Origin: Deferrisomatales bacterium
GTDB taxonomy: Bacteria; Desulfobacterota; Deferrisomatia; Deferrisomatales; JACRMM01
Length of the DNA stretch: 24,061 bases
Direction of reading: 5' to 3'
NCBI GenBank assembly: GCA_033551855.1
Contig: JAWSUI010000057.1
Span: 1-24,061, forward strand
Shown here piece after piece: positions 428 to 16,534 of this stretch. Position 1 is the stretch's first letter. The number at the start of each line of letters is the position of its first letter. A program made the translations under genes and the position numbers. The notes under the pieces are model-generated. The model did not search any database. It had not been told where the DNA came from and saw only the letters and a program-made list of their open reading frames with translations.

Positions 428-2335
428 TCAGAAGATGTCGCCGAAGGTCGAGCGGACCATGCCCTGAAGGCGCTCCGTGGCCTCCAGGGCGTGGCGCAAG
501 AGGTAGCGCTGCTGGATGGGCAGGGCCTGGGGGTCGATGTAGTTGTCGGGGGCTTGGCCCAGGCGAAGTTTCTTGGCTTGGGCCGTCAGGCGGAAGTGGC
601 AGAGGGTGCGGTACGCGGTCTGGACGAACTCGGCCTCGTCGGCGGGGATGGCCCCGGCCTGGGCCAGGGCTTCCAGGCGCTCGGTGGTCCCGGTTTCGGA
701 CACCCCGTGACGCAGCGCGAGGATCCGGGCGCACTCCACCACGAAGAGCAGCCCCGAGCGCTTCACGTCCATCTGACCCTTGTGGGGGCCGGAGCGCTCG
801 GTGACGAAGTTCTTGAAGAACGTCAGGGGCACACGGTGGTTGGAGGCCTCTCGGTACAGGCTTCGCAGGAGATGGAAGTTCCGTTGGATGCCCCGGGTGA
901 TGAAGGCCCGCAGGTTCTCGGCCAGTCCCGCGTCGCCCCAGATGGGCTCGAAGTCATAGAACAAGGTGGTGTAGCGCACGGCTTTGGAGTCGGGGTTGGC
1001 GTACCACCCCTGGACCTGCTCCTTCCACTCGCCGGCCGGCTTTCTCCACACGGGGTTTCGGCTCATCACGTGGCCCGTGCAAAGGGGGAACCCGGCGCGG
1101 GCCAGGCCCTCGGAGACCTTGTCTCCCAGGTCCATGAAGTAGGGCTCCACCAGGGCCCAGTCCTCCACCGGATAGTCTGCCAGGATCATGCCGTGGTCCT
1201 GGTCGGTGCTGAAGTGGTTCTCGCCCCGGCCGTGGCTCCCCATCACGATGAAACAGAAGGGCAGGGGGAGGCGGCCCCTCCCCTCCTCCTCCATCTCCAG
1301 GATCGAGAGCTCCAGAGCCCGCCGGTGAATGTCGCGGTTGATGTGGGAAAGGAGCCGGCTCACCTCCTCCGAGACCACCCCCTCGTCGAGGAGGTCGGCG
1401 CAGACCACGAGGCTCTGCTGGTGGGCCTCGCCCAAGTGCTCGAAGGACCGGGCGCCGTCGATGGCCTCCGCCAACTCCAAGGTGGCGTTGGTACCCAGGG
1501 CCAGGAGCTCCCGCATGGACAGGACCCCCACCAGCCGGCCTCCCTCCATCACCGGGAGGTGCCGCACGTGCCGGCGGCGCATGAGGCCCAGGGCGTTGTA
1601 GAGGTATGCGTCCGAGGGGAGGGTCACCACCGGGGCCGACATCACCTCGGACACCGGGACGCGGTCCGGATCCAGACTGCGGGCGAGGACCCGCTGGATC
1701 AGGTCCTTCTCCGTCACGATGCCTTGGATCCCCTCGGGGCCGGCCACGATCACCGAGCTCGCCTCGACCTCCCCCATGTACGTGGCGGCCTCCCGAGCGG
1801 TGGCCGAGGGGGGCAAAGTGGTGGCGGGGCTCGTCATCGCCTCGCTCACCCGCCGCCGGAACGGGAACGTCTGGACCCGGGTCAGGGGACCCCTTGCAGA
1901 CTGGGCCTCGATCTCGTGGAAGAGCTCCCCCACCCTCTGGGCCATGGTGACCGCCAAAACCTGGCCCACCGCAGGGTACTTCTGGACCAGGTCCTGCACT
2001 ATCGCCACCGGGATTTGAAGAATCTCCCCTGCCGCAAGCACCCGGGCCGAGACGGGGAAGGGGTCGGAAGTGAAGACGGTGAGCCAGCCCACGAACTGCC
2101 CCGGCCGGGCCAGGCTCACGGCCCGCTCTTCATCGGGGGGCCCGACCCGGATCTCCGCGGTGGCGGTGAGCAGGTAGAAGACGTGAGGGGGCTGCCCCTC
2201 TCCCTGGCGGAAGAGGTATTCCCCGACGGCGGCCTCCCTGCCGACGACCGTTTCCTCGAGCCGGCGCAGGGCTTCTTCGGGGAGCCCGCGCAGGGCGGGG
2301 ATGCCGTCGAGCAGCCGTTCCACGTCTCCGGTCAT
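428..2335 (-). CDS. cNMP-binding + tandem CBS + DUF294 nucleotidyltransferase + DUF294_C protein (635 aa)
   Basis: Start moved to ATG 2335 (MTGDVERLL), with GGAGG upstream. N-terminal Crp-type beta-roll (YLFRQGE..FYLL). CBS pair (VSEAMTSP..GIVTEKDL; VMSAPVVT..RHLPV..VGVLSMREL). Pol-beta NTase motif GSHGRGE...TDQD, then the DUF294 motifs MSRNPVWR and DVKRSG. Confidence 0.9.
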   Translation of the reverse strand: MTGDVERLLDGIPALRGLPEEALRRLEETVVGREAAVGEYLFRQGEGQPPHVFYLLTATAEIRVGPPDEERAVSLARPGQFVGWLTVFTSDPFPVSARVLAAGEILQIPVAIVQDLVQKYPAVGQVLAVTMAQRVGELFHEIEAQSARGPLTRVQTFPFRRRVSEAMTSPATTLPPSATAREAATYMGEVEASSVIVAGPEGIQGIVTEKDLIQRVLARSLDPDRVPVSEVMSAPVVTLPSDAYLYNALGLMRRRHVRHLPVMEGGRLVGVLSMRELLALGTNATLELAEAIDGARSFEHLGEAHQQSLVVCADLLDEGVVSEEVSRLLSHINRDIHRRALELSILEMEEEGRGRLPLPFCFIVMGSHGRGENHFSTDQDHGMILADYPVEDWALVEPYFMDLGDKVSEGLARAGFPLCTGHVMSRNPVWRKPAGEWKEQVQGWYANPDSKAVRYTTLFYDFEPIWGDAGLAENLRAFITRGIQRNFHLLRSLYREASNHRVPLTFFKNFVTERSGPHKGQMDVKRSGLLFVVECARILALRHGVSETGTTERLEALAQAGAIPADEAEFVQTAYRTLCHFRLTAQAKKLRLGQAPDNYIDPQALPIQQRYLLRHALEATERLQGMVRSTFGDIF

Positions 2336-2594
2336 TCCCCCTGCCTCCCGCCGCGGCGCATCCAGGCCTCCCCCCGACCGACTCCCGCCACCCCCGGGGC
2401 TCGACTCGAGCGTAACGCGGGCACCGGGTTCCGTCAACGCCGGGCCTGGTTCCCGGGGCCACCCGGCCGGGCAGATTCGGCCGGGCACGGCGGCGGGGCA
2501 GCCTTCCCTGGAAGGCCTTTTTGAGATATGGTTTGACAGTGACCCGCGGTCTCTGGTTCAAGGCAGGAAACGGAGGGTTGCACGGAGAGGGGAG

Positions 2595-2966
2595 ATGGCC
2601 AGGAAGAAGATCCTCGCGGTGGACGACGAGCCCAACATCCTCCTGTCTCTCGAGTACATCCTCGAGCAGGAGGGCTACGACGTGCACGTGGCGCGGGACG
2701 GGGAAGAGGCCCTGGAGGTCGCAGAGCGCGTCCGACCCGACCTGATCCTCCTGGACGTGGCCATGCCCCGCCGGGACGGCTATGAGGTGTGCCGCCTCCT
2801 GAGGCAGCGCGAGGACCTGACGGGGGTGCGGGTGCTGATGCTCACCGCCAAGGGGCAGCCCCTGGAGCGCAAGAAGGGGCTCGAGGTGGGGGCCGACGTG
2901 TACGTCACCAAGCCCTTCAGCGCCGACGACCTGCTCCAGAAGATCCGGGCCGCGCTGCGCGAATGA
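2595..2966 (+). CDS. Stand-alone response regulator receiver (CheY-like, 123 aa)
   Basis: ATG 2595 follows GGAGAGGGGAG. D10-D11, phosphoacceptor D54 (LLDVAMP), MLTAK and TKPF are all intact. No output domain. Confidence 0.92.
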   Translation: MARKKILAVDDEPNILLSLEYILEQEGYDVHVARDGEEALEVAERVRPDLILLDVAMPRRDGYEVCRLLRQREDLTGVRVLMLTAKGQPLERKKGLEVGADVYVTKPFSADDLLQKIRAALRE

Positions 2967-5686
2967 CGGTCGCGCCCCCTCCCCTCTCCGTCCGGCGAAG
3001 CCTGCGCACCCGCTTCGTGCTCACCTTTGCCGGGCTGGCGGTGATCCCCTCCCTGGCGGCTCTGGCTGGGCTCTTCTTCCTCGTGCGGTACGACGTGGGC
3101 ACCCTGCGGGGTGCGGACATGGCCCAGGAGGCGGGGCTGCTGGCCGCTCAGCTCGAGGCCCAGGTCGAGGCGGCCGCCCGCTCGGCGGCGGGGATCGCCA
3201 GCCTGCCCGACGTGCGGGGCCACCTCGCCGGAGAGCGACCCTACCCGCTCGCCGACCTCTCTGCCGCTCGCCGACTCGTGCCCGGCCTCCGGCACTTGAC
3301 CCTCCGGGCGGAGGCGACCCCCGATCCCCGGCTCTCCGACATCGTTACCTGGGGCACCGACGAGACCTTCGAGGTCCGGGTCCCGATCGTGGGTGTGGAG
3401 GGCGTTCGAGCGGGAACACTGGAGGTGTCCTTCGATCTGGAGCGCCTGCACCGGGTCCTCGAGTGGTACCGCCGGGGCGAGGCCGGCCGGGCGGTGCTCC
3501 TGGGGGAGGGGGGGAGGCTGTTGGCGGGGTTTGCCGATCTTCCCCTGCCGCCTTTGGGCCGGGCGAGCCGAGGATGGGTCAGCTATCGGGTGGGGGGCGA
3601 GACCTATTTTGCCGGCATCGCCCCCGTGGATCCCTGGGGCGGGGGGCTTCCGCCGGCCTGGCACCTGGCGGTCATCCAGCCGGGGGCGGAGGTCTATGCC
3701 TCCTTCTATACCGTGGCGGGGCAGATCGCCCTGGTCCTGGGCGCCTTCAGCCTGGTGGTGCTGGCCTTGGCGTGGCGCATGGCGGACCAGTTCCTGCGCC
3801 CGATCCTGCGGATTCACAACGGGGCCGAGATCATTTCCCGGATCAACCTCGCCCACCGCATTCAGGTGGACACGGGGGACGAGCTCCAGGCCCTGGCAGA
3901 AGGGTTCAACCGGATGGCCGAGAGTCTCTCGGGCGCCTACGGGGAGCTCGAGGGCCGGGTCCGGGAGACCACCCGTTCGCTGCAGGAGGAACGCAACCGG
4001 CTGGCTGCGGTGCTTCGCACCATGGCCGAGGGTGTGGTCATGGGCAACGAGGACGGAGATGTCGTCCTCATGAACCCGGCCGCCCGTGTCGCGCTGTGCA
4101 CCGGCCCTTCGGCGGGGATCGGCGGCCCCCTCTGCCACCTTCTCCCCGAGGCCCGCCTCGAGTTCTATCTGCGCCGCCTGCGAAGTCATTCGGAAGGGGG
4201 GCGGGACGCGGTCGAGCCGGTGACCTTCCCTCTGTCCCAGGGACCCCTGCTGCGGGGGCTGCTTTCCGCCATCCCGGGCCCCGGGGGCGGCCGGGCGGGG
4301 TATCTCGTGGTGTTCCGGGACACCAGCGCCCGGGCGCAGGAAGAGCGCCGCCTCGAGCGGGCGGTGCGGGAGATGCCGGAGCTCCTGCGGGGGCCCACGG
4401 CCGCCGCCCGTTCCCTCCTCGAGACCCTCGAGCGCCACCCGGACATGCCCGCCGAGCGCCAGAAGCGATTCCTGGACGGCATCCGGGAAGAGGTCTCCCG
4501 CCTGACGGATCGGCTGCGCCTGGCCGAGGACGCGGCCGAGGCGGGCCAGACCCTGCTCCCCGGCGTTCCCTGCGATCCCTCCGAGCTCCTGCGCGAGGCG
4601 GCCGCCTCGGTCTCCGGTGCCTTCGTCCAGATCGAGGACGCCGACGAGCGGCTGCCCGCGGTGTCGGTGGAGCCCTTCTCTTGGGTGTCGGCTCTGGCGG
4701 CGCTCCTGCGCTGGGCCGGGGCCCGGTCTTCCGGTTGGTCGCCCGTGCGAGCGGCCCTGCGGTGGGAGGACGGGGCGGTGGTGGCCACGTTCCAGGTGGA
4801 GGGGGCCCTGGGGTCGGGCACCGCGGAGATCGAGGAGCTCGACGCCGCGCCCCCGGGGGAGGCCCCCGCCTCCCTGGCCGAGGTGGTGCGCCGGAATCGG
4901 GGCGAGGTCTGGACGCGGGTAACGGAGGGAGGCTTCGAGGTGCGGCTGGCGCTGCTCCCGGCGACGGAGCCGGCGGCGGAGGCCCGGGTCGAGGGCATCG
5001 CGGACGAGCAGCCCGAGTTCTACGACTTCGACCTCTTCCTCCCTCGCCCTTCCACGGAGCCTGCGGAGATGCTCCGCACCTCCCTCGCGAACTTGGAATA
5101 CGTGGTCTTCGATAGTGAGACCACGGGGCTTCACCCCTCCCAGGGGGACGAGGTGGTGAGCCTGAGCGCGGTCCGGGTCCGCCACGGCAAGGTCCAGCAC
5201 GCCGACACCTTCCACAGCCTGGTCAACCCGGGTCGGCCCATTCCCCGTGCCTCGATTCGCTTTCACGGCATCGAGGACGCCATGGTGGCCGATGCCCCCG
5301 GCATGGCCGAGGTCCTTCCCCTCTTCTACGAGTACGTGGGAGGGTCGGTGCTCGTGGCCCACAACGCGGCCTTCGACAAGAAGTTCCTGGACCTGGCGGC
5401 CGGCCGGTTCGGCCTGCCCCTGCTGGAGAACCCGATCCTCGACACCCTGTTCCTCTCCTACGGCCTCCACAAGGACTTCGAGGGGCACAACCTGGACGCC
5501 ATCGCCGAGCGCTTGGGGATAGAGATGCAGGGACGGCACACCTCCCTCGGGGACGCCCGGGTGACGGCCCTGATCTTCCTGCGGCTGGTCCCGCTGCTCG
5601 CGACCCGTGGTATCGAGACCCTGGGTCAGGCCAAGGACTTCTGCGACCGGATGCTGCTCTTGCGCTGGCAGTCTTCCCGCTTCTGA
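2963..5686 (+). CDS. Membrane-anchored TM-Cache-TM-HAMP-PAS-degenerate HisKA/HATPase-DEDDh 3'-5' exonuclease (DnaQ-like) fusion (907 aa)
   Basis: ATGA overlap with the receiver stop. Two hydrophobic helices flank a periplasmic region. HAMP (LRPILRI..GDELQALAEGFNRM), PAS-like (MAEGVVMGNEDGDVVLMNPAA..LVVFRDTS) and an H-box-like ELLRGP lacking His. After the linker EFYDFDLF come Exo I FDSETTG, Exo II HNAAFD and Exo III RHTSLGDA. Confidence 0.85.
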   Translation: MTVAPPPLSVRRSLRTRFVLTFAGLAVIPSLAALAGLFFLVRYDVGTLRGADMAQEAGLLAAQLEAQVEAAARSAAGIASLPDVRGHLAGERPYPLADLSAARRLVPGLRHLTLRAEATPDPRLSDIVTWGTDETFEVRVPIVGVEGVRAGTLEVSFDLERLHRVLEWYRRGEAGRAVLLGEGGRLLAGFADLPLPPLGRASRGWVSYRVGGETYFAGIAPVDPWGGGLPPAWHLAVIQPGAEVYASFYTVAGQIALVLGAFSLVVLALAWRMADQFLRPILRIHNGAEIISRINLAHRIQVDTGDELQALAEGFNRMAESLSGAYGELEGRVRETTRSLQEERNRLAAVLRTMAEGVVMGNEDGDVVLMNPAARVALCTGPSAGIGGPLCHLLPEARLEFYLRRLRSHSEGGRDAVEPVTFPLSQGPLLRGLLSAIPGPGGGRAGYLVVFRDTSARAQEERRLERAVREMPELLRGPTAAARSLLETLERHPDMPAERQKRFLDGIREEVSRLTDRLRLAEDAAEAGQTLLPGVPCDPSELLREAAASVSGAFVQIEDADERLPAVSVEPFSWVSALAALLRWAGARSSGWSPVRAALRWEDGAVVATFQVEGALGSGTAEIEELDAAPPGEAPASLAEVVRRNRGEVWTRVTEGGFEVRLALLPATEPAAEARVEGIADEQPEFYDFDLFLPRPSTEPAEMLRTSLANLEYVVFDSETTGLHPSQGDEVVSLSAVRVRHGKVQHADTFHSLVNPGRPIPRASIRFHGIEDAMVADAPGMAEVLPLFYEYVGGSVLVAHNAAFDKKFLDLAAGRFGLPLLENPILDTLFLSYGLHKDFEGHNLDAIAERLGIEMQGRHTSLGDARVTALIFLRLVPLLATRGIETLGQAKDFCDRMLLLRWQSSRF

Positions 5687-5706
5687 CGGAGGCCGCCCCG
5701 GCACCC

Positions 5707-5895
5707 ATGGACCGCTCGAACCGAGGCCTGGCCGCCCTGCTGGTCCTGGGAGTCGCGGGGCTCCTGTCCCCCCTGGTGGGGGCCTTCAACCGGCCGGAGG
5801 GCGTGGCGGGGCTGCCGCTGCTCCCCCTCTACCTCTTCTCCACCTGGGGGGTCCTGGTCCTGGGGGCCTGGCTCCTGACCCGGAGGAAGAGGTGA
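5707..5895 (+). CDS. Small 2-TM membrane protein (62 aa), probable accessory subunit of the SLC5-type kinase
   Basis: Two hydrophobic segments (..FNRPEGVAGLPLLPLYLFSTW..) and a basic tail; GTGA-coupled to the next gene. Resembles the small membrane proteins that precede solute:sodium symporters. Confidence 0.75.
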   Translation: MDRSNRGLAALLVLGVAGLLSPLVGAFNRPEGVAGLPLLPLYLFSTWGVLVLGAWLLTRRKR

Positions 5896-8800
5896 TCTCC
5901 ACCTTCTGGGTGGCGTTCCTGGGGGTCGCCTACGTGCTGGGGCTCTTCGCCATCGCCTACGCGGCCGACCGGGCCCGCGCGCGCGGGCGGAGCCCCGTGG
6001 ACAACCCCTGGGTCTACAGCCTCTCCCTGGCGGTGTACTGCACCTCCTGGACCTTCTACGGGAGCGTGGGGCGGGCCGCGGGCCAGGGTCTCGGGTTCCT
6101 TCCCGTCTACCTCGGGCCCACCCTGGTCTTCCTCCTCGCCCCCACGGTGCTCCGGCGCGTCGTGGCCCACGCCCGGGCAGAGGGGGTCACGAGCGTGCCG
6201 GACCTGCTCGAGTCCCTGTACGGCAAAGGGCGGCTCCTGGGCGCCCTGGCCACCACGATGCTGGTGATCGGGGTGACCCCCTACATCGGCCTCCAACTCA
6301 AGGCGGTGGGGTACACCTTCGATCTCCTCACCGGGCGCCCCCCGGCGGCCACCCTGTGGGACGACGCCGCCCTGTGGGCCGCACTGGGGCTGGGTCTCTT
6401 TTCGGTTCTCTTCGGCGCCCGGACCCTTGTGACCACCGAGCGCCACGAGGGGATGGTGGCCGCGGTCGCCTTCGAGAGCGCCGTGAAACTGGGGGTTTTC
6501 CTGGTCCTGGGGGTGTACATCGTGTGGGGGATCGGAGGGGGTCTGGGGGCGGTCTTCACCGAGGCCCTGGCCCGGCCCGAGCTCTCCCATCACTTCGTCC
6601 TGGGGGAGGGGTCGGGCACGCCCTTCGCCGAATGGGTCAGCGTCAGCATCCTCTCCGCTTGCGCCGTGATCCTGCTGCCCCGGCAGTTCCACATGCTCGC
6701 CGTGGAGAACGTGCGCGAAGAGCACCTGCGGCCCGCGGCGTGGATCTTTCCCGCCTACCTCCTCCTCATCAACCTTCTCGTGCTGCCCGTGGCCCTGGTG
6801 GGGCTCCTGGCGGGGGAGCCGGGGTCGCCGGACTTCTTCCTCATCTCCATGCCCCTGTCCCGGGGCCGGATCGACCTGGCGTTCCTGGCCTTCGTGGGAG
6901 GTTTCTCGGCTGCCACCGGCATGGTGATCGTGGCTTCCGTGGCCTTGGCCACCATGATCCTCCACCACCCGGGAATCGGGCTGCTGGGGCAGTTCTCGGT
7001 CTCCCTGGGCAAGTACAACCAGGCGGACTTCAGCCGGCACCTCCTGCTCGCCAAGAGGCTCGTCATCTTTGGGGTGGTCCTTCTGGGCTACGGGTTCAAG
7101 CGGTGGATCGGAGACTCCCACACCCTGGTCAACATCGGGCTCCTGTCCTTCTCGGCGGTGACCCAGTTCGCCCCGGCCGTGTTCCTGGGTCTCTACTGGC
7201 GGGGAGGGACCCGTGCGGGGGCCCTCACCGGCCTGGTCCTGGGGTTCGCGGTCTGGTCGTACACGCTCCTCCTGCCGAGCGTCGCCGAGTCGGGGTGGGT
7301 CGGGGCGGCCATCCTTTTCGAGGGCCCTTGGGGTGTCGAGCTCTTGCGGCCCCAAGCGCTCTTCGGGCTCGCGGGGCTGGACCCTTGGACCCACGCCCTG
7401 GTGTGGAGCCTGGTGTTCAACCTGGGGGGCTACGTGACCGCCAGCCTGCTCTCGAAAGCCCGGCCCCGGGCCTCCGAGCTCTCCCCGCGCCAGACCTGGG
7501 CCTCGCGCGAGGACCTCGAGGCCCTGATCACCCGGTTCGTGGGCACCGAGAAGGCCCGGGAAGTGTTCGCGGGCCTCCCGGAGCGCGCCTCCCCCCAGGT
7601 GCTGGTGGAGACCGCCGAGCGGTGCCTCGCCGGTGCCCTCGGCACCCCTTCGGCCCGCACGGTGATCGAGAGCTTCCTCGCGTGGCCCCGGGATCAGGCG
7701 GGGGAGATCCTGGACGTGTTCGGGGGGGTGAGCCGGTCCCTGGAGGAGGGCCGCGGCTCCATGGAGCGCCGGCTGCGGGAGCTCATGGTGCTCCATGAGG
7801 CGTCGAGCACCCTCTCCAAGAGCCTCCACATCGACACGGTGCTCGCCGAGGTGCTCCACCTGATCCACCGCGAGTTCGGGTTCGAGTACCTCGGCGTGCG
7901 CCTGCTGGACCCCGACGGTATGCTCCGCATCCGCAGCAATGTGGGCCTGGAGCCCGATTACGTCCGGATCTCGGCGGTCCCCCCCTCCGAGGAAACCTAC
8001 TTCGGGACCTGCTTCCTGCGGGGCGAGCCCGTGGTGCTCGAGGACGCGCGCCACGTGGACAAGCCCGTCTTCTTCCGGCACCTGACCCAGAACGTGCCGG
8101 TGACCGCCCTGATCCACGCTCCGATGGTGCACGAGGGGCGCTCCATCGGCGTCCTGACCGGGTACGCGACCCGGGGGCCCATGCACTTCACGGAGGAGTT
8201 CGTGAGCCTGTTCGCGGCCCTGGCCAACCAGCTCGCGCTGGCCGTGGCCAACGCGCGCCTCTACGCCGAGGTCTCCGACTACAGCCACGCCATGGAGGAG
8301 AAGGTGCGCCACCGCACGGCCGAGCTCGAGGCGGCCAACGCCCGCCTCCGGGAGCTCGACCGGCTCAAGAGCGACTTCCTGTCCACCGTGAGCCACGAGC
8401 TGCGCACCCCCCTGACGTCGATCCGCTCCTTCTCCGAGATCCTGCTCCGCTATGACGTGGACAAGCCCGAGCAGCGGCGCAAGTTCATCGCGATCATCCA
8501 GGCGGAGGCAGAGCGGCTGTCCCGGATGATCAACGAGCTCCTGGACCTGTCCAAGATCGAGGCCGGCAGGATAGAGCTCAACCCCGAGCCGGTGGGGGTG
8601 GAGCAGGCGATCCGCAAGGCCCTGGACGTCGCGCGTCCCCTCCTGGCGGAGAAGGGGGTGCTCGGCCGGCAAGACGTGGAGCGGGGGCTGCCCCTGGTCC
8701 ACGCCGACTCGGACCGCCTGCAGCAGGTGCTGGCGAATCTGCTCTCCAACGCCGCCAAGTTCGCTCCGGCCGAGAGCGAGGTCCGGGTCTCGGCCCGGCG

Positions 8801-9092
8801 CCGGGGGGATTTCGCCGTCCTCAGCGTCTCGGACCGGGGCGCGGGCATCCCTGCCGCGCGACTGAACGAGGTGTTCGAGCGCTACCGCCAGGTCCGCGAT
8901 CCCGAGAAGGCCCACCCCCTGGGCACGGGTCTGGGGTTGTCGATCTCCAAGGAGATCGTCCAGCGCCTGGGCGGCCAGATCTGGGTGGAGAGCGAGCCGG
9001 GGGAGGGGACCACCTTCTTTTTCACCCTGCCCCTGGTGCCGGCCTCCACCGCGTCGCACCCCGACGGCACCCCCGGTACCCCCTCCGCGTGA
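5892..9092 (+). CDS. SLC5 (Na+/solute symporter)-STAC-GAF-HisKA-HATPase sensor histidine kinase, CrbS/CbrA-related (1066 aa)
   Basis: GTG 5892 follows GGAGG. SLC5-kinase motifs YSLSLAVYCTSWTFYGSVG, PYIGLQLKA, LPRQFH and GGFSAATGMVIV. STAC-like helices (LITRFVG..AERCLAGALGTPSAR) and a GAF domain (GEPVVLED..APMVHEGRSIGVL..LANQLALAVANARLY). H-box SHELRTP (H835), N-box NLLSNAAKF, G1 DRGAGI, G2 GTGLGL. No receiver domain. Confidence 0.92.
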   Translation: MISTFWVAFLGVAYVLGLFAIAYAADRARARGRSPVDNPWVYSLSLAVYCTSWTFYGSVGRAAGQGLGFLPVYLGPTLVFLLAPTVLRRVVAHARAEGVTSVPDLLESLYGKGRLLGALATTMLVIGVTPYIGLQLKAVGYTFDLLTGRPPAATLWDDAALWAALGLGLFSVLFGARTLVTTERHEGMVAAVAFESAVKLGVFLVLGVYIVWGIGGGLGAVFTEALARPELSHHFVLGEGSGTPFAEWVSVSILSACAVILLPRQFHMLAVENVREEHLRPAAWIFPAYLLLINLLVLPVALVGLLAGEPGSPDFFLISMPLSRGRIDLAFLAFVGGFSAATGMVIVASVALATMILHHPGIGLLGQFSVSLGKYNQADFSRHLLLAKRLVIFGVVLLGYGFKRWIGDSHTLVNIGLLSFSAVTQFAPAVFLGLYWRGGTRAGALTGLVLGFAVWSYTLLLPSVAESGWVGAAILFEGPWGVELLRPQALFGLAGLDPWTHALVWSLVFNLGGYVTASLLSKARPRASELSPRQTWASREDLEALITRFVGTEKAREVFAGLPERASPQVLVETAERCLAGALGTPSARTVIESFLAWPRDQAGEILDVFGGVSRSLEEGRGSMERRLRELMVLHEASSTLSKSLHIDTVLAEVLHLIHREFGFEYLGVRLLDPDGMLRIRSNVGLEPDYVRISAVPPSEETYFGTCFLRGEPVVLEDARHVDKPVFFRHLTQNVPVTALIHAPMVHEGRSIGVLTGYATRGPMHFTEEFVSLFAALANQLALAVANARLYAEVSDYSHAMEEKVRHRTAELEAANARLRELDRLKSDFLSTVSHELRTPLTSIRSFSEILLRYDVDKPEQRRKFIAIIQAEAERLSRMINELLDLSKIEAGRIELNPEPVGVEQAIRKALDVARPLLAEKGVLGRQDVERGLPLVHADSDRLQQVLANLLSNAAKFAPAESEVRVSARRRGDFAVLSVSDRGAGIPAARLNEVFERYRQVRDPEKAHPLGTGLGLSISKEIVQRLGGQIWVESEPGEGTTFFFTLPLVPASTASHPDGTPGTPSA

Positions 9093-9175
9093 AGCCCGGC
9101 GCACCGGGGCGTGCGGGGCCGCTGCTTCCCATGGCCGCGGATCGCGGGGAGGAGCGAAGGGGCTCCCCGGCCCCG
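9089..9175 (+). repeat. 87-bp dispersed intergenic repeat, copy A
   Basis: 78/87 identical, ungapped, to the reverse complement of 16238-16324. Confidence 0.8.
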
Positions 9176-9259
9176 CTCGGCTCGGCCGTTCACGCACCTT
9201 GACACGCGGTCGGCGAAGTCCGTATGTAGGCTCCCCTCGAGTCCCGCCGGGAGGAGCCC

Positions 9260-10396
9260 ATGGGAAAGGACTATTACGCCACCCTGGGGGTGGCGCGCAC
9301 GGCCTCGAACGAGGAGATCAAGAAGGCTTACCGCAAGCTTGCCCTCAAGTACCACCCCGACCGGAACCCCGGGGACGAGGGCGCGGAGGAGCGCTTCAAG
9401 GCCTGCGCCGAAGCCTACGAGGTGCTGGGAGACCCGGAGAAGCGCCGGCTCTACGACGCCTATGGGGAGGAGGGGCTGAGCGCCCGCGGGGTTCCCCACG
9501 GCTTCCGAGGGTTCGAGGACATCTTCTCTACCTTCGGCGACATCTTCGGCGACCTGGGTTTGGGATTCGGTGGGGGTGGCCGGCGGCGGGTGCGCCGGGG
9601 GCGGGACCTGCGGCACGAGGTCACGGTCACCCTGGCGGAGGTGGCCCGGGGGGACGTCCGGAAGATCCGGGTCCGCAAGCCCTCGGTCTGCCCCGACTGC
9701 GGCGGCCGGGGCGCGGCGTCCGCCGCGGACGTTCGCACCTGCCCGGCCTGTCAGGGGAGGGGCGCCGTGATCCAGGTGCTCCGCCAGGGCTTCACCACCT
9801 TCCAGACCACCCGGCCCTGCGGCGAGTGCGGGGGGACGGGCCGTCTCGTCACCCGGCCTTGTGAGGCCTGCCGGGGCGAAGGGATGGTGCGCGCCGAGAA
9901 AATCGTGGAGGTGCGCATCCCCGCCGGGGTGGAGGACGGCCAGCAGCTTCGCCTCGACGGGGAGGGAGAGGAGATCCCCGACGGGGTGCCCGGCGACCTC
10001 TACGTCGTCCTGCGGGAGGAGGAGCATCCGCTCTTCGAGCGCAGGGGCGCGGACCTCTTTGCCCCCCTTCGGGTGGACCTCCTCCGGGCGGTGGAGGGGG
10101 GCACCGTGGAGGTGGAGGGCCCCGGGGGCGACGCCGTGGCCGTGACCCTGGAGCCGGGGGTCCAGGCGGGCGCCGTGAAGGTGATCCGGGGGGGAGGCCT
10201 GCCGGTGCTGGGGCGGGGAAGGGCCCGGGGGGACCTCTACCTCCAGGTCTGGGTGACCACGCCCCAGGGGCTCGACCGGGAACGGGTGGCCGCCCTCCGG
10301 AAGGTACTGGAGGGCGCCCCCCTGTGCGCGGAGGAGATTCACCACCGGGGCTGGAAGGAGTGGCTCCGGGCCCTCTTCGGCGGCGGCCCGCCCTAG
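9260..10396 (+). CDS. dnaJ: Class A J-domain co-chaperone DnaJ (378 aa)
   Basis: J domain with HPD, a G/F region, four CxxCxGxG repeats ([32 protein letters not shown]) and the C-terminal domain (IPAGV, GDLYV). RBS GGAGGAG. Confidence 0.93.
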
Positions 10397-10597
10397 TGCT
10401 ACAACCCGCGATCGTTTCTCCGCGTGCGTCCGGCGCGAGACCGTCCCTCCGGCGGGCAGGATCCCGGCGCGCCGTGCAGCTCGCGAGGCGGTTTCGAGCG
10501 GCCCTTCGGTGCGCCCGGCGCATCGTTCCAAGGCCGCCTGCCCGCTCCCCAGGAAGGCCCCGCGCCCGACTCTGACGCAACTCTCGCGATAGTATTA
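10394..10597. repeat. ~200-bp imperfect palindrome (possible second MITE-like element)
   Basis: Arms 10428-10460 and 10537-10570 are complementary at about 25/34 positions. Inner stems CCGGCGCGCCG/CGGTGCGCCCGG and GCTCG/CGAGC; ends TAGTGCTA and TAGTATTA. Confidence 0.5.
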
Positions 10598-10603
10598 ACG
10601 GAA

Positions 10604-10812
10604 GGTTCTTCCGGCAAACGACCGGGTGGGCCCGCCCCCTCCGGCGGACGATGCCGGACTGTACGGTAGATGGGCTCCCGCGCCGCATCCGGAATCCTCG
10701 CGGCATCGCGGCTCCCGAAACGGCTGCTCCCGTCGAGCGGCCGGCCGCCTGCGTGGCCGGGCCCACCCGGTCGCCCCTCGACGCGAGTACCCGGTGATTT
10801 CCCGGATGAACC
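10604..10812 (+). mobile_element. 209-bp MITE/REP-like structured repeat, copy 2
   Basis: Direct repeat of 183-391. TIRs GGTTCTTCCGGCAAACGACCGGGT and ACCCGGTGATTTCCCGGATGAACC match 20/24. Perfect internal 16-bp inverted repeat at 10619-10634/10758-10773. Confidence 0.78.
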
Positions 10813-10837
10813 CAAGGGAATGTGGGGGGCCCGGGCG

Positions 10838-11935
10838 CTACGCGGAGATCCTCCCTCCGGAATTGAGCAGCACCGCCCGCTCGAAGTCGGAGGGGTTGGT
10901 TGCGGCGCAGCGGGCGGTCTCGAACTCGATGACGCCCTGGTTGTAGAGGTCCATGAGGTGCTGGTCGAAGGACTGGGTGCCGTAGTTGTCCCGGCCCGCC
11001 TCGATCACGTCCTTGATCTCGTGGGTCTTCAACGGGTCCTTGATGCACTCCTCCAGGTGCCGGGTCATCCGAAGGATCTCCAGGGCGGCGACACGGCCCT
11101 TCCCCTCCTTGCGGGGGAGCAGCCGCTGGCTGACGGTGGCCTTGAGGTTCTCCGCGAGCCGGATCCGCACCATGTTCTGCTCCTCGGCCGGGAAGACGCT
11201 GATGAGGCGCCCCACGGTCTTCGCCGCGTCGGTCGTGTGCACGGTGCTGAAGACCAGATGGCCGGTCTCCGCGGCCTTGAGGGCCGTGTCGATGGTCTCC
11301 GTGTCCCGCATCTCCCCCACCAGGATGATGTCCGGGTCCTGCCGCAGGGCGGCCCGAAGCGCGATGTTGAAATTGGGGGTGTCGAGCCCGATCTCCCGCT
11401 GGCTCACCGAGCTCCTTCTGTTCCGGTGCACGAACTCGATGGGGTCCTCGATGGTGATGATGTGGGCGCGGGACCGCTCGTTGAGGTGGTCGATCATGGC
11501 CGCCAGGGTCGAGGACTTGCCGCTTCCGGTGACCCCGGTGATGAGGACCAGCCCCCGCTCCTCCAGGGCGATGTCCTCCAGGACCCGGGGAAGCCCCAGG
11601 CTCTGGAACGTCGGGATCTCCAGGGGGATCACCCGCAGGATCACCGCCAGGGTGTTGCGCTGGCGGTAGATGTTTACCCGGAAGCGTCCCACCCCGCTCA
11701 AAGAGTACGAGCCGTCCCACTCCCGGATGTCCTGCGGGGGAACCGGCGGGCTGGCCCCCGCCGTGACCAGTGCGGCGACCGCGGCCGTGTCCTCCGAGGA
11801 CAGGGGCGGGGTCTTGGCCTCCTGGAGCACGCCGTTCACCCGGAGCAGGATGGGGGTGTTCACCTTGAGGTGGACGTCGCTGGCCTGGGCCTTGAGCGCC
11901 CCGGCCAGAATCCTGTGAAACGTCTCTTTCTCCAT
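10838..11935 (-). CDS. pilT: Type IV pilus retraction ATPase, PilT/PilU family (365 aa)
   Basis: ASDVHL, RFRVNIY, Walker A GVTGSGKS, Asp box TIEDPIE, Walker B ALRQDPDIILVGEMRD and His box ETGHLVFSTVHT. The AIRNLIRE motif is replaced by HLEECIKD, so this is a paralogue. Confidence 0.9.
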   Translation of the reverse strand: MEKETFHRILAGALKAQASDVHLKVNTPILLRVNGVLQEAKTPPLSSEDTAAVAALVTAGASPPVPPQDIREWDGSYSLSGVGRFRVNIYRQRNTLAVILRVIPLEIPTFQSLGLPRVLEDIALEERGLVLITGVTGSGKSSTLAAMIDHLNERSRAHIITIEDPIEFVHRNRRSSVSQREIGLDTPNFNIALRAALRQDPDIILVGEMRDTETIDTALKAAETGHLVFSTVHTTDAAKTVGRLISVFPAEEQNMVRIRLAENLKATVSQRLLPRKEGKGRVAALEILRMTRHLEECIKDPLKTHEIKDVIEAGRDNYGTQSFDQHLMDLYNQGVIEFETARCAATNPSDFERAVLLNSGGRISA

Positions 11936-11989
11936 CGCGCGCTCCCGTCGCCCGGCCCCGGAGGGGCCGCTGGGGGGGGGCGGGCCCCG

Positions 11990-12208
11990 TCAGTGCAGGG
12001 CGCACATCCCGTGGGGGGCCAAGAGGTCCCGGCCGAACCAGCCGGGGATGTCGGCCTGCTCGTGAACCCTCCGGCAGGAGGGGCAGTAGGTGTACCAACG
12101 GCATCCCGGCCCTTGGGGACGGGTTACCGCGACCAGCCGGGGGTGGCCGCACTCCAGGCACTCCCCCCGGTGGCGCTCGAGTTGCACTCTCGCCTCCCTG
12201 ACCGGCAC
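11990..12208 (-). CDS. Small Cys-rich putative zinc-ribbon protein (72 aa)
   Basis: GTG 12208 with GAGGAG 7 nt upstream. MPVREARVQLERHRGECLECGH..CRWYTYCPSCRR..MCALH contains CxxC-x21-CxxC. Confidence 0.6.
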   Translation of the reverse strand: MPVREARVQLERHRGECLECGHPRLVAVTRPQGPGCRWYTYCPSCRRVHEQADIPGWFGRDLLAPHGMCALH

Positions 12209-12277
12209 CTCGGCTCTCCTCTCCCCCCTGCGCAGGCCAAAGGATCGGCAGGACTCTCCCTGCCCTTGAGCCCCCGG

Positions 12278-12306
12278 GTGACGGTGCGCCGCGGACTCGG
12301 TATGCT
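12278..12306 (+). promoter_or_regulatory. Candidate sigma70 promoter for the 12348 gene
   Basis: GTGACG, 17 nt, TATGCT, ending 41 nt upstream of GTG 12348. Confidence 0.35.
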
Positions 12307-12347
12307 GTTCCCCCGGAGCGCGGGGCCGGGGAGGGAGGAGGGCCGGG

Positions 12348-12854
12348 GTGGACGATCTGCGGATCTGGAGCCTGGGAGAGTGGGTGCACGCCCTCGCCCG
12401 CCGGGACCCCGTGCCGGCGGGCGGTGCCCTCGCTCTGGCGACCCTGGCCGGAGCCTCGGCCCTGGCGGCCAAGGCCGCTCGTCTCTCGGGACGCCCGCCG
12501 GAGCCCTGGGAGGAGCGGGCGGCACACTTGCTGGCCGAGGCCGCACGGGACGGGTGGCTGTACGCCGAAGCTGTCCGGGGGGGGGCGGGGGCTGTGCACG
12601 CCAGCCTGGAGGCGACCCTAGGGGCCCTGGGGGAGGCGGTGACCCTCTTGGAGGAGTTGGCCCCCCTCTTCCGGGGCCTGGGACCGGCCCTGGCGGCCGA
12701 CGCTGCCGCGGCCGAGCGCCTGGCCCGGGCGGGGGCCCAGACCCTGTCCCTGAACCTCGCGGCGAACCTGGCGGCGTGGGCGGGCCGGAGCCCGGGGCTC
12801 GACCCGCTGGCCCGGCGCTGGTCCGAGCTCAGGGCTCGCCTGGAGGAAGCATGA
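12348..12854 (+). CDS. Cyclodeaminase/cyclohydrolase (FTCD_C-like) family protein, divergent (168 aa)
   Basis: The N-terminus SLGEWVHALARRDPVPAGGALALATLAGASALAAKAARLS resembles the family pattern S+xEF+xxLASxxPxPGGGS. All-helical and Ala-rich, with C-terminal LSLNLAANL. RBS GGAGGAGG. Confidence 0.7.
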   Translation: MDDLRIWSLGEWVHALARRDPVPAGGALALATLAGASALAAKAARLSGRPPEPWEERAAHLLAEAARDGWLYAEAVRGGAGAVHASLEATLGALGEAVTLLEELAPLFRGLGPALAADAAAAERLARAGAQTLSLNLAANLAAWAGRSPGLDPLARRWSELRARLEEA

Positions 12855-13051
12855 GCGGATGGGGTTGTCCCCACGAGGAGGGGGGCAGGTGCCGAGAACG
12901 GGGGGCGCCCTGTGATCCCGGGGCCCGAGGTTGCGTGCTGGAGGAGAGGCTCCGGCTCACGGGGCTCGGTTCCCCCCCCTCGGGGTCGCAGGACCCGGAG
13001 GAGGAAGCACCCGGGAAGCCCGCGGGGGTCGGTCCGGTCCCTGAAGGGTAG
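12851..13051 (+). CDS. Small 4-Cys hypothetical protein (66 aa)
   Basis: ATGA overlap with the upstream stop and a GGAGG RBS at 12842-12846. MSGWGCPHEEGGRCRERGAPCDPGARGCVL is followed by a low-complexity tail. Confidence 0.7.
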   Translation: MSGWGCPHEEGGRCRERGAPCDPGARGCVLEERLRLTGLGSPPSGSQDPEEEAPGKPAGVGPVPEG

Positions 13052-13138: not shown

Positions 13139-14221
13139 TCACGGGAGGTCCCGGGGCCGCGGGACCGTGAAGCGGAAGGTCGTCCCCCCTCCGGGCTCGG
13201 ACTCCTCCACCCAGATCCTGCCGCCGCGGGTTTCGACAATCTTTCGGCAGATGGCCAGCCCGATCCCGGTTCCGGGATACTCGGAGGCTCCCCAGAGCCT
13301 CTCGAACAAGCGGAAGATCCGCTCCCGGTCAGCGGGGTCGATGCCGATGCCGTTGTCCCGGACGGCGAACACCCACTCGCCCGGGTGCTCCTCCACGCCC
13401 ACGTGCACCCGGGGCGGCTCGCCCCCCCGGAACTTGAGCGCGTTGCCGACCAGGTTCTGGAAGAGTTGGACGAGCTCCGTGGGGTGGCCGGGCACAGCCG
13501 GGAGGGGGTCGTGCGTAACCCGGGCGCCACAGGCCTCGATCTCGGCGGCGAGGTTCGCCAGGGCTTCCTCCAGGGCGGTGCCCGCCTCGACGGGGACCGG
13601 CTCCTGCCCCCCCCTCCCCACCTTCGAGTAGGAGAGCAGATCGCAGATCAGCGTCTCCATGCGCTCGGCGCCCCGGGCGGCCTGGTCCAGGTACGCGAGC
13701 CCGTCCGGGCCCAGCCGGTCCGCGAACCGTCGCCGCAGGAGTTGGAGGTAGCCCAGCACGGCCACGAGGGGGGACTTGAGGTCGTGGGCCGCCGCGGCCG
13801 CGTACTGCTCCAGCTCGGTGTTGGACCGGGCGAGCTCCAGGCTCTTCCGGGTGAGGGCGCGCCGGGCCGATTCCCGCTCGGCGAGCAGGGTGCGGCTCCG
13901 GTCCGTGACGAACGCGAGCACGGCGAAGACGAGAAACCCCCCCAGGGCGTTCCAGTAGGGGGCCTGGGGCAGCAGGTAGCGGTGACCGCCGAGGTGGTCG
14001 GCGGCGAGCCACGTCAGGGCGGCCCAAGCGGCGAGGGCGATCCCGTGCCCCAAGCCGGCCCTCCAGGCCACGAAGTACACGGGGCCCACGTAGAGGATCT
14101 CGGCGCTGAGCTCGATCCCGGTCGCGAGATCCACCAACCCGACCACCAGGACCAGCAGCGCCCCCTGGTACAGGCTGCGCCTCCGGGCTGCTGCGCGGGC
14201 CGGGGGGTGGCTCTTCGACAT
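13139..14221 (-). CDS. Membrane sensor histidine kinase (360 aa), orphan
   Basis: Start ATG 14221 (MSKSHPP). About 4 TM segments (DUF4118-like intramembrane sensor, inferred). Cph1-like core: RSNTELEQYAAAAAHDLKSP, QLFQNLVGNALKF, DNGIGI, IFRLFERL, GTGIGL. Confidence 0.88.
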   Translation of the reverse strand: MSKSHPPARAAARRRSLYQGALLVLVVGLVDLATGIELSAEILYVGPVYFVAWRAGLGHGIALAAWAALTWLAADHLGGHRYLLPQAPYWNALGGFLVFAVLAFVTDRSRTLLAERESARRALTRKSLELARSNTELEQYAAAAAHDLKSPLVAVLGYLQLLRRRFADRLGPDGLAYLDQAARGAERMETLICDLLSYSKVGRGGQEPVPVEAGTALEEALANLAAEIEACGARVTHDPLPAVPGHPTELVQLFQNLVGNALKFRGGEPPRVHVGVEEHPGEWVFAVRDNGIGIDPADRERIFRLFERLWGASEYPGTGIGLAICRKIVETRGGRIWVEESEPGGGTTFRFTVPRPRDLP

Positions 14222-14352: not shown

Positions 14353-14799
14353 TCAGGTCCCGGACGCGGGGTGGCAGGCGGTGCACCCCCGGTCCGAGAA
14401 GCCCCGGTGATCGTCCGGGAAGGGGAAGACCCCCTCCGGGCCGTGGCAGTCCCCGCAGCTCTCGTACCCCTCGAGGGGGTGGGGAAGGGGCGCGGCGGCG
14501 CCGGGGGAGGCGGGGGGAGGCGCAGAGGGGGCCGGGCCGGGGGCGTGGCAACGGGTGCAGCTCGCGGTGCTCCAGCCCAGGTGCCGGACAGGATAGGGCT
14601 TCACCCCTTGGGGGCCGTGGCAGGCGCCGCAGCGCTCCCGCCCCTCGATGGGGTGGGAGACCTCCTGGGCCTGGCTCGCTGCGGTGCCCGCGGAGAGCTC
14701 CCAGACCTCCGGTGACTGGACCACCGCGAAGACGACGGCCGCCAGGAGGATGAGCGCCCCCGTCACCGCCGCCAGGTGTCTGGAGTACAGCTCGCGCAT
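14353..14799 (-). CDS. Membrane-anchored/exported tetrahaem c-type cytochrome with two NapB-like dihaem repeats (148 aa)
   Basis: N-terminal hydrophobic helix; four CxxCH motifs (CGACH, CTRCH, CGDCH, CTACH) and four extra His; an internal duplication separated by a Pro/Ala linker. Confidence 0.88.
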   Translation of the reverse strand: MRELYSRHLAAVTGALILLAAVVFAVVQSPEVWELSAGTAASQAQEVSHPIEGRERCGACHGPQGVKPYPVRHLGWSTASCTRCHAPGPAPSAPPPASPGAAAPLPHPLEGYESCGDCHGPEGVFPFPDDHRGFSDRGCTACHPASGT

Positions 14800-14809: not shown

Positions 14810-16132
14810 TCAGACGAAGTTGAAGCTCTCGGACTGGCACTGCTCCAGGGGTAGGCCGAGCCGCTCCAGCATCGTCTTCACCGCCATCTGCACGGGTTCC
14901 GGGCCGCAGACGAAGTAGTCGCGCTCCAGGCGGTCCGCGGGCAGGTACCGGGCCAGGGTTTCCGCCGAGAGCCGCCCCCTCTCCCCGGTCCACCCCTCCG
15001 CGGGCCGGGACAGCACGTGGACCACGTCCAGGTCGAGGCGCAGGCGCAGGTCCTCCAGCTCCTCCCGAAAGGTGGCCTCGGCCAGGTTCCGGCTCTGGTA
15101 CATCAGCAGCAGGGGCCGGCGGTCGCGCCGGTCGGCGAGGGTGCGCAGGATGCACATGACGGGGGTGATCCCCACCCCCGCGGCGATGAAGACGTAGCCC
15201 CTCGCCGGGTGGCGGTCCACCGAGAAGGAGCCGTAGGGGCCGTCCAGGTAGGCCCGGGTCCCCGGGGTCACCGACCCGATGGTGGAGGTGAAGTCCCCCA
15301 GCTCCTTGATGGTGATCTGCACGCGGTCCTGCTGGAGGGAGCTGGACGAGAACGAGAAGGGGTGCTCCCGGATCGCGAAGGGGGAGCGGTCGACCTTGAG
15401 CCACGCGAACTGCCCGGGCTCGAAGACCATGCCCGGGTGCCCGTCGGGGCGCAGGGTGAGCGTCCAGCTCCTTCCCCGCTCCGGAAGGACCTCGTCCACC
15501 ACCCAGGGGCGCCGGAGCATGCCCAGCGGCTTGATCAGCCGCACGTAGACCAGGGTGAAGACCCAGGCGGCGACGATCGTCACCCAGAGGCCGACCTTGA
15601 GGGGTCCCTGCACGTAGTAGCCCACCCCGGCGATGTGCCCCACCGAGAGCCCCACTGCCGTCACGGAGAGCAGGGCGTGGGAGACCCGCCACGCCTCGTA
15701 GCTCAGCCCCACGCGCTCGCGCTCCAGGGAGGCCGCGATGATGACGCCGAAGGCCGCCACGCCGGCCGTGCCCGCCGTGATCCACCAGGGCCCGGTGGCG
15801 GGGTTCAGGAGGGCGAGGGTGGCCGGGGCCTGGGCGAGCAGGATGGCCGCGTGGGCCACGATGAGCCCGAAGGCGATCAGGGAGATGCGCCGGTGGAAGT
15901 GATACACGACGTCGACCCCGTAGGGCGACGTGATGCGTCGGAAGCGCCCGGTCAGGAAGAACTGGAAGCCCATCATCGACACCCCCGCGAACCCCAGCCC
16001 CACCGAGAGCTCGCGCCAGAAGCCCCGCCCCGGCGGCATGGGCCCCACGAACAGGGCGAGCAGGGGCAGGGCCACGAAGGCAAGGTACACCGCGATCCAG
16101 AACGTCGCGCGGAGCAGGAACCGTGGGCTCAT
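14810..16132 (-). CDS. Ferric reductase/NOX-like flavocytochrome b (TM + FAD + NAD(P)H domains, 440 aa)
   Basis: Six TM helices with two His pairs (FHRRIS..VAHA; VSHALL..VGHI), FAD motif EHPFSFSS, GPYGSF, NAD motif AAGVGITP, CGP and C-terminal ESF. Confidence 0.9.
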   Translation of the reverse strand: MSPRFLLRATFWIAVYLAFVALPLLALFVGPMPPGRGFWRELSVGLGFAGVSMMGFQFFLTGRFRRITSPYGVDVVYHFHRRISLIAFGLIVAHAAILLAQAPATLALLNPATGPWWITAGTAGVAAFGVIIAASLERERVGLSYEAWRVSHALLSVTAVGLSVGHIAGVGYYVQGPLKVGLWVTIVAAWVFTLVYVRLIKPLGMLRRPWVVDEVLPERGRSWTLTLRPDGHPGMVFEPGQFAWLKVDRSPFAIREHPFSFSSSSLQQDRVQITIKELGDFTSTIGSVTPGTRAYLDGPYGSFSVDRHPARGYVFIAAGVGITPVMCILRTLADRRDRRPLLLMYQSRNLAEATFREELEDLRLRLDLDVVHVLSRPAEGWTGERGRLSAETLARYLPADRLERDYFVCGPEPVQMAVKTMLERLGLPLEQCQSESFNFV

Positions 16133-16237: not shown

Positions 16238-16324
16238 CGGGGCCGGGGAGCCCCTCCGCTCCGCCCCGCAATCCGCGGCCATGCGAAGGGGTGTCCCCGC
16301 AGGCCCCGGTGCGCCGGGCTTCAC
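16238..16324 (-). repeat. 87-bp dispersed intergenic repeat, copy B
   Basis: Reverse complement matches 9089-9175 with 9 mismatches. Confidence 0.8.
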
Positions 16325-16534
16325 CCCCTTGTGGCGGCCTCGGCGGGTCGGTCGAGGAGGTGCGGGGCTGCGCTCCTAGGCTCCCCGGCCCCGCCCGAAC
16401 ATCCGGTGGTGGATCTTGGCCGCCCCGGGGGCGGGTTGGCAATCTCCCCGGGCGTGGTACCTTCGGCCCGGCGGGCGTCCGTTGGTTCTCCGGGGTCGGG
16501 GCGCCGGCACGGCGCCGGGGGGAAGGAGCTCCTG

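Follow-up and report, generated by a model that had tools for sequence, protein, structure and literature searches.

How does a sensor kinase act when no DNA-binding regulator is encoded beside it? The question is raised by contig JAWSUI010000057.1 of a Deferrisomatales bacterium (GenBank assembly GCA_033551855.1; source genome of 4.24 Mb in 132 contigs, marker completeness 100%), which was analysed over its entire 24,061 bp, hereafter the window. Near its left end lies a four-gene operon for a single-domain receiver (REC), a membrane protein ending in a DEDDh exonuclease domain (the nuclease), a small two-helix membrane protein and an SLC5-type transporter-kinase, and facing this operon is a gene for a COG2905/DUF294-type nucleotidyltransferase (NTase). 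We propose that the kinase acts through the phosphorylated receiver (REC~P) on a DivL-like pseudo-kinase within the nuclease, gating an exonuclease domain that would erase from a transporter the nucleoside monophosphate (NMP) added by the NTase, and we assign this reading a probability of about 0.45. That the two enzymes are a writer and an eraser acting on a protein of some kind is somewhat more likely than not.

Conservation of the nuclease and nucleotidyltransferase

The initial annotation, made from the sequence without database searches, had described five genes with intact catalytic residues, and all of these were verified, together with the junctions it had named (an ATGA overlap at 2963-2966, a 20-nt gap at 5687-5706 and a GTGA overlap at 5892-5895) and a shared divergent region of some 260 bp, measured here at 259 bp (2336-2594). 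Its remark that nothing in the locus has a DNA-binding domain also agrees with the Pfam matches of the five proteins, none of which is to a DNA-binding family. An NTase and a nuclease of this type each occur once in the source genome; among close homologues, those with names are from Deferrisomatales, Geobacter and Desulfuromonas. The complete divergent five-gene layout recurs in four relatives (and is cut by contig ends in three further), which, with the co-occurrence across phyla given below, means that the clustering of these genes is not due to chance.

Nuclease loci were surveyed in the best 80 of 555 confirmed matches, many of them on short contigs, and span Desulfobacterota, alpha-, beta- and gammaproteobacteria, Magnetococcales, Nitrospirota, Chloroflexota and Thermoleophilia. 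An NTase gene is present in 53 of these loci and an SLC5 kinase in 55, with NTase, REC and SLC5 kinase occurring together in 33; a VC_2705/ActP-like (SSS) symporter is encoded in 39 and acetyl-CoA synthetase (Acs) in 11. For the 27 loci that have no NTase, DUF294_C was found elsewhere in 25 of the genomes. The system is real, conserved and spread over several phyla.

Co-occurrence of the NTase with the nuclease fusion had been set beforehand as a main point on which the writer/eraser idea could fail, and the two proved to co-occur strongly. Across a baseline of 250 Pseudomonadota genomes, from which the source genome was excluded and in which a fusion was called at a pseudo-kinase E value <1e-35 (one borderline match, E 6.5e-17, being counted with the genomes that lack a fusion), DUF294_C was detected in 23/24 fusion genomes versus 51/226 others, and all 23 genes were on the same contig and within 6 kb of the fusion; the Fisher P of 8e-13 is overstated because related genomes are not independent. 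COG2905 NTases occur in 74 of the 250 genomes sampled. Within the class of the source genome, the nuclease was found in 21/21 genomes and DUF294 in 20/21. Where the fusion is missing, the association persists in another form: among 20 NTase loci picked by hand from the 51 Pseudomonadota genomes without a fusion, a DEDDh gene adjoins the NTase in 19 and an SSS symporter with its small subunit is encoded in 11, and one genome (G150) holds four NTase genes that each adjoin their own stand-alone exonuclease (L168-L171). An SLC5 hybrid kinase of 1159 aa is encoded about 5 kb away from one of these G150 pairs.

Pseudo-kinase, exonuclease and receiver

The nuclease has Pfam matches to HAMP, PAS (weak) and RNase_T (residues 714-872) and none to HisKA or HATPase, and its five DEDDh residues (Table 1) are invariant in 120/120 rows, conservation having been counted over the best 120 of 478 homologues. 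Its AlphaFold model, which is usable for domain folds only (mean predicted local distance difference test score, pLDDT, 76.8; predicted template modelling score 0.39), has, by Foldseek, a HAMP-PAS-DHp-CA body resembling that of WalK and behind it a PolC/DnaQ-like domain, the closest folds to the DEDDh domain being PolC, DnaQ, ExoX and RNase T. The phospho-histidine position in this body is Glu473, and His occurs at that column in 0/48 diverse aligned rows; the DHp-CA body is therefore a pseudo-kinase, its fold still kinase-like. Mean column identity is 71-88% in the cytoplasmic parts (71-82% in the HAMP-PAS-DHp-CA scaffold) versus 56% in the periplasmic part. Matches to PRK09145/09146 were far below cut-off, and the acidity of the nuclease domain (a net negative charge) was discarded as evidence, DnaQ-like controls being no less acidic. 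Shorter fused exonucleases of 465-496 aa that group with the pseudo-kinase-fused clade were found beside symporter and NTase genes (L139:2375-3865, L154:8994-10391).

Control of the nuclease by a periplasmic ligand, as originally suggested, does not hold as a general feature. The periplasmic domain matches dCache_1 below cut-off (E 0.034), and among 115 homologues with an intact first helix the segment is missing (<40 residues) in 50, shortened (123-138 residues) in 26 and of full length in 39, so that a periplasmic ligand was rejected as the core control and the domain is an optional input, dispensable in the family. Directly before the DEDDh domain stands the motif PEFYDFDLF (window 5012-5038), whose Tyr687 is invariant in 120/120, and at the C-terminus a terminal aromatic residue is conserved; possible roles for these elements are autoinhibition or acceptance of NMP.

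REC, in which D10 and D11 accompany the residues listed in Table 1, is encoded directly upstream of the nuclease in at least 66 of the 80 loci. A pseudo-kinase profile from which the four closest rows of this lineage were left out ranks the cognate transporter-kinase first among the ~45 kinases of the genome (E 1.6e-11 versus 1.5e-5 for the next) and places the paralogous SLC5 kinase outside the top 25, and a profile of the own lineage gives the same order, weakly (E 0.018 versus 0.36). Across the Pseudomonadota sample, the second match of the profile is an open reading frame (ORF; not individually annotated) of 890-995 aa in 20/24 genomes, adjacent in 14. The whole-domain ranking and these second matches suggest that the scaffold derives from the cognate kinase and may, by analogy with DivL and DivK~P, sense the receiver of that kinase. 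The physical tie between nuclease and phosphorelay argues for a regulated signalling output rather than a housekeeping DNase.

The nucleotidyltransferase core

In the NTase, matches above cut-off to cNMP (37-120), two CBS domains, DUF294 (311-450) and DUF294_C (488-631) follow one another, and the GS..DxD motif reported as intact is present as G366-S367 and D378-Q-D380, with G366, S367, D378 and D380 invariant in a 45-row alignment; domain order and motif together place the protein among the COG2905/DUF294 nucleotidyltransferases. A sequence search found no solved structure of a DUF294 core. The model of this core (mean pLDDT 95.6) is closest to the N-terminal domain of GlnE (Z 28.2), the C-terminal domain of GlnE (27.1) and DrrA (26.1), superposing at a root-mean-square deviation of 2.6-3.2 over 294-306 residues with 11-16% identity, versus Z <=8.9 for antibiotic NTases and 6.2 for the oligo-dA synthase HalB. 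All three clear matches act on protein-NMP bonds; a common fold does not establish function, and the modelled core is what supports the earlier description of the protein as a likely NMP-transfer enzyme.

From a regulatory perspective, one CBS site retains G205-x-x-T208-x-x-D211, a pattern we take to mark an adenine-nucleotide site, and is consistent with adenine-nucleotide sensing. The initial label of a cNMP domain needs a correction, in that canonical binding residues are missing: the canonical CRP-type cassette binds phosphate through Gly-Glu and Arg, these are replaced here by Gly-Trp and Val, and Glu is present in 0/23 aligned rows, making control of the NTase by cAMP doubtful. Related NTases come in other forms, among them an 853-aa sCache_2-PAS-DUF294 membrane protein, a receptor-type version of the putative writer (L152:4400-6961), and a 357-aa protein that consists of DUF294 and DUF294_C, lacks CBS and cNMP domains and is encoded downstream of the kinase (L001:6520-7593, L002:15438-16511).

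The transporter-kinase and its replacement

The kinase has a weak SSF match, matches to GAF, HisKA and HATPase, and intact N and G boxes besides H835; its SLC5 domain matches PDB 10ED at E 4e-64, and the fusion of SLC5 to an intact DHp-CA module is that of the SLC5-STAC histidine kinases. The initial assignment as an SLC5-STAC-GAF kinase stands for SLC5, GAF and HisKA/HATPase; STAC is putative, supported only through a profile match, over the same region, to ~1160-aa SLC5 hybrid kinases of CrbS size (E 1e-24 to 1e-27), the region giving no Pfam match and, with a profile run against the PDB, no structural match. The two-helix protein, encoded in 55 of the 80 loci and with one homologue that matches DUF3311 below cut-off, is by analogy a probable CbrX-like small subunit of the transporter-kinase, CbrX being known to bind the SLC5 domain of CbrA (PMC13022988).

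The SLC5 input is replaceable. In 4/21 class genomes (L173, L174, L176, L177), a 460-aa GAF kinase without SLC5 or STAC replaces the SLC5 kinase, while REC and a nuclease, there without its periplasmic domain, are kept; the SLC5 domain was accordingly rejected as an obligatory input or target, and the stable core is kinase-REC-pseudokinase-nuclease. Elsewhere in the source genome (C37, ~7990-12912), a second SLC5-STAC-GAF kinase of 1092 aa, 49% identical in its membrane part, shares an operon on another contig with a small two-helix gene of its own and with genes for a REC-HisKA protein and a lone REC; this operon has neither NTase nor nuclease.

Proposed mechanism

Functionally, we posit that the stimulus is a solute, probably one of the small carboxylates, which the SLC5-STAC kinase would detect together with its small membrane subunit; as operon structure and intact residues indicate, the kinase would then phosphorylate the lone REC. 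REC~P is predicted to dock on the dead DHp-CA scaffold, as DivK~P does on DivL, and so to gate the DEDDh domain. The NTase, whose CBS pair presumably makes it responsive to adenine nucleotides, may place NMP on a protein side chain, probably Tyr, of a solute transporter or its complex, which would be switched off; this step builds on the computed fold. The DEDDh domain could then hydrolyse the protein-O-NMP bond, which is akin to a 3'-terminal nucleotide, and transport would resume. Pseudomonas induces the pair by transcription via CrbS/R, and the present lineage would instead couple the eraser directly to the kinase. Tentatively, and with the odds somewhat against so full a statement, the output of this widespread two-component system could be the gated removal of nucleotides from a membrane transporter, neither transcription nor a second messenger, with a receiver docking on a dead copy of its kinase and a DEDDh domain serving as protein de-NMPylase against an energy-sensing, GlnE-like writer.

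The enzyme pair has a published history. The earlier statement that DUF294 NTases have no established substrate stands to the extent that no paper on a COG2905 substrate was found, and it understated prior knowledge, the pair being that of PP_0354/PP_0353 and Pflu5625, with a PII-like role already proposed. In Pseudomonas putida KT2440, PP_0354/PP_0353 form an operon under MxtR/ErdR, and loss of the exonuclease, unlike loss of the NTase, impairs growth on pyruvate as loss of actP does (PMC9927547). For the NTase, protein modification like PII uridylylation was suggested, and the nuclease was likened to RNase T (bioRxiv 10.64898/2026.09.07.749794). Pflu5625 is a member of the CrbS/R regulon and showed no phenotype (PMC5715377); COG2905 NTases go back to a prediction as signalling enzymes (Aravind and Koonin 1999, cited in PMC5715377), and no substrate is known to have been assigned to them since. 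The pair is cofit with the DUF4212 small subunit of a symporter (bioRxiv 072470), and the PA3232-3235 cluster is induced on propionate (PMC9765439). These genetics of the stand-alone pair, notably the pyruvate phenotype and the symporter cofitness, fit an action on the transporter and by analogy favour the writer/eraser idea. Among Bacillales, eight listed species have an amtB operon with DUF294 and dnaQ (PMC3412718, Table 1), and in our own reading six of these eight rows list no glnK. AmtB represents a second, unrelated transporter fold; the pair sits in the usual place of a post-translational inhibitor, which suggests that it may replace control by GlnK. Our literature search, which did not cover supplements and most subscription papers, found nothing on a pseudokinase-exonuclease fusion, a COG2905 substrate or a DEDDh de-NMPylase.

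Several observations weigh against the proposed mechanism. On propionate, growth of both the NTase and the exonuclease mutant of P. putida is reduced (bioRxiv 10.64898/2026.09.07.749794), an outcome not expected of a simple inhibitor/activator pair. That a nuclease can remove AMP from protein speaks for the mechanism and is proven for the tRNA nuclease RNase Z in its pairing with SelO, but the same study found the DEDDh enzyme RNase T unable to deAMPylate substrates of SelO, both in vitro and in cells (PMC12663964); the removal of NMP by a DEDDh domain, as first annotated, has no precedent in the literature found and one published test that was negative for RNase T. The GlnE fold is moreover capable of AMP removal on its own (PMC12663964), so that an NTase need not require an eraser. 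A match to the VC_2705/ActP-type transporter is absent from the source genome and five others of the 21 class genomes (86-100% complete), and the favoured target is consequently missing in the source genome unless another SSS protein serves; there, the role of target could fall to either of two other SSS proteins, to the SLC5 kinase or to a soluble enzyme. Sharing of specificity residues between DHp helix 1 of the scaffold and the cognate kinase was not borne out, helix 1 alone ranking that kinase 4th to 7th of 36, so a common receiver specificity is not established. Evolutionarily, a 45-row tree places fused nucleases and PP_0353-like stand-alone partners on separate branches, with weak support (87/88 and 92/87), so the Pseudomonas genetics are taken here as an analogy. 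Co-folding of the full NTase with the nuclease domain scored 0.00 and was counted neither way.

Alternative readings

An unlikely alternative, and the one that survives best, keeps the phosphorelay wiring and exchanges the substrate for a nucleic acid or oligonucleotide: the NTase would tail RNA or make a short linear nucleotide signal, the DEDDh domain would trim or destroy it, and expression or activity of the transporter would be controlled in this way. DEDDh domains are textbook 3'-5' exonucleases and the nearest folds named above are of that kind, mRNA decay or turnover has been speculated upon (PMC9927547) and a role in symporter expression proposed (bioRxiv 072470), and the inactivity of RNase T on AMPylated protein (PMC12663964) points the same way. 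Against these stand the fold of the NTase core (Z 26-28 to GlnE/DrrA versus <=9 to NTases that make nucleotide signals or modify small molecules), an Rfam scan of the window that returned no RNA family, and the fact that the pair travels with the unrelated transporters SSS and AmtB.

It is also improbable that the writer and eraser act on a protein other than a stand-alone transporter, be it the SLC5-kinase, which would then form an adaptation loop of the CheR/CheB kind, the nuclease at its Tyr687 motif, or some soluble enzyme, for instance Acs. The six class genomes without a VC_2705/ActP match retain nuclease and NTase, Tyr687 is invariant, and Acs is encoded in the source genome as well as in the 11 loci; but SSS transporters outnumber Acs as neighbours (39/80 versus 11/80), and the four class genomes with an SLC5-less kinase keep REC and nuclease, and in three of them a short NTase gene adjoins one for an SSS transporter. 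Two further genomes, with only NTase remnants at the divergent site, count on the same side. In these two (L184:5625-5797, L185:6295-6618) the long NTase is deleted to remnants, the four-gene operon is intact and other DUF294 genes are present.

Quite improbably, the two enzymes might share a regulon and have separate substrates, the NTase writing and erasing alone like the two GlnE domains, or acting by binding, and the nuclease hydrolysing a small nucleotide that feeds the CBS or cNMP-like domains. The top fold match of the NTase is the adenylyl-removing N-terminal domain of GlnE; several short CBS-NTases in the own class lie beside symporters with no nuclease detected nearby; and NTase distances correlate with those of the other genes at rho 0.56-0.67, below the 0.69-0.92 found among the latter. 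Adjacency is nevertheless tight (23/24, 19/20 and four pairs in one genome), and, the nuclease being present in each of the 21 class genomes, action in trans explains the lone NTases, which fit with a fused nuclease working in that manner.

An ordinary transcriptional system, in which the kinase would signal to a DNA-binding regulator elsewhere, REC would be a phosphate sink and the nuclease an unregulated DNA or RNA exonuclease, is very unlikely: the characterised SLC5-STAC kinases do act via LuxR- or NtrC-type regulators (PMC5715377, PMC9100948, PMC13022988) and about 55 receiver-containing ORFs in the source genome leave room for a regulator outside the locus, but the REC-nuclease coupling is conserved across phyla, the signalling scaffold is kept at the identity given above, and a DNA-binding response regulator occurs in only 6/80 loci. 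These six, from three families, are those scanned among nine long receiver ORFs, and none is conserved, in line with the claim made at the outset; at the present locus the operon regulator is REC only, without the cognate DNA-binding partner of CrbS/R, CbrA/B or RpuS/R.

If gated removal of NMP from a transporter is correct, nutrient transporters would be switched by reversible nucleotidylation and two-component systems would gain a new class of output; COG2905 would be given a function, DEDDh would count as a new eraser fold, and SSS and Amt transporters could be gated without PII.

Genomic context

The features of the locus are collected in Table 1. A sigma-70 consensus scan of the 259-bp divergent gap yielded nothing that passed. 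The neighbours are unrelated: DnaJ (9260-10396), a PilT-like ATPase (10838-11935), FTCD_C (12348-12854), a histidine kinase (13139-14221), a small multiheme cytochrome (14353-14799) and a ferric-reductase-like protein (14810-16132), followed at ~16500-24061 by a run of hydrophobic ORFs, presumably an Mrp/Mnh-type antiporter cluster. A 209-bp repeat at 183-391 and 10604-10812 (copies 90% identical, internal inverted arms of ~32 bp) matches about 90 sites on 46 contigs, gives no Rfam match, resembles miniature inverted-repeat transposable or repetitive extragenic palindromic elements, and may account for the contig break. A second, intergenic repeat of 87 bp, at 9089-9175 (right after the kinase stop) and 16238-16324, has about 62 matches on 43 contigs.

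Table 1 Features of the locus, in window positions, with the basis of each assignment
Feature	Positions	Strand	Residues and basis
NTase, COG2905-type cNMP-like/CBS-CBS/DUF294/DUF294_C	428..2335	-	635 aa; Pfam, motif alignment, fold model
Divergent intergenic region, 259 bp	2336..2594	.	Sequence
Single-domain receiver (REC), 123 aa	2595..2966	+	D54 phospho-acceptor, T84, K106 intact; ATGA-coupled to nuclease gene
Nuclease, TM/Cache-like periplasmic domain/TM/HAMP/PAS/pseudo-histidine-kinase/DEDDh exonuclease (TM, transmembrane helix)	2963..5686	+	907 aa; Pfam, model
Periplasmic Cache-like domain of nuclease, residues 44-250	3092..3712	+	Weak dCache_1 match, model
Pseudo-kinase DHp-CA scaffold of nuclease, residues ~455-666	4325..4960	+	Alignment, model
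DEDDh exonuclease domain	5102..5578	+	D717, E719, D805, H859, D864; Pfam, alignment
Small membrane protein, two helices; probable CbrX-like subunit	5707..5895	+	62 aa; sequence
SLC5-STAC-GAF-HisKA-HATPase transporter-kinase	5892..9092	+	1066 aa, H835; Pfam, PDB 10ED match, residue check; STAC putative

Comparison with known systems

Among protein-modifying NTases, GlnE and DrrA (the N-terminal part of DrrA/SidM) match the whole core, with Z 26-28, an intact GS..DxD and the same NTase-plus-helical fold; the locus enzyme differs from these and from GlnD in its single NTase domain, its CBS and cNMP-like regulators, the lack of an HD or second NTase domain, and an identity of 11-16%. The SelO/RNase Z pair shares with our proposal the use of a nuclease as protein deAMPylase, and differs in that its eraser is not a DEDDh enzyme, the DEDDh protein RNase T having been inactive in the same work. 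RNase Z we take to have a metallo-beta-lactamase fold.

With CbrXA, CrbS/MxtR and RpuS, the locus kinase shares the SLC5 domain and, as in CbrX, an overlapping upstream gene for a two-helix peptide; it differs in carrying GAF where those have PAS behind STAC, in lacking a REC domain at its C-terminus, and in being paired with a lone REC in place of a DNA-binding regulator. The closest parallel for the wiring is DivJ/PleC-DivK-DivL of Caulobacter, which likewise combines a kinase, a single-domain receiver and a pseudo-histidine kinase as possible receiver sensor (PMC5361649). DivL controls another kinase, whereas the pseudo-kinase here bears its own enzyme output and is predicted, by analogy, to bind REC~P.

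Closest in content are PP_0354/PP_0353 (Pflu5625; PA3233/PA3232), which have in common with the locus the NTase architecture, the DEDDh partner and the linkage to an SSS transporter and an SLC5-STAC kinase. PP_0353 is a stand-alone gene for ~230 aa, co-transcribed with the NTase and controlled transcriptionally, and its counterpart here is a 907-aa membrane pseudo-kinase fusion, encoded in a kinase operon with a lone REC. The enzyme pair itself is already known; what sets this locus apart is the proposed direct wiring of the phosphorelay to the nuclease.

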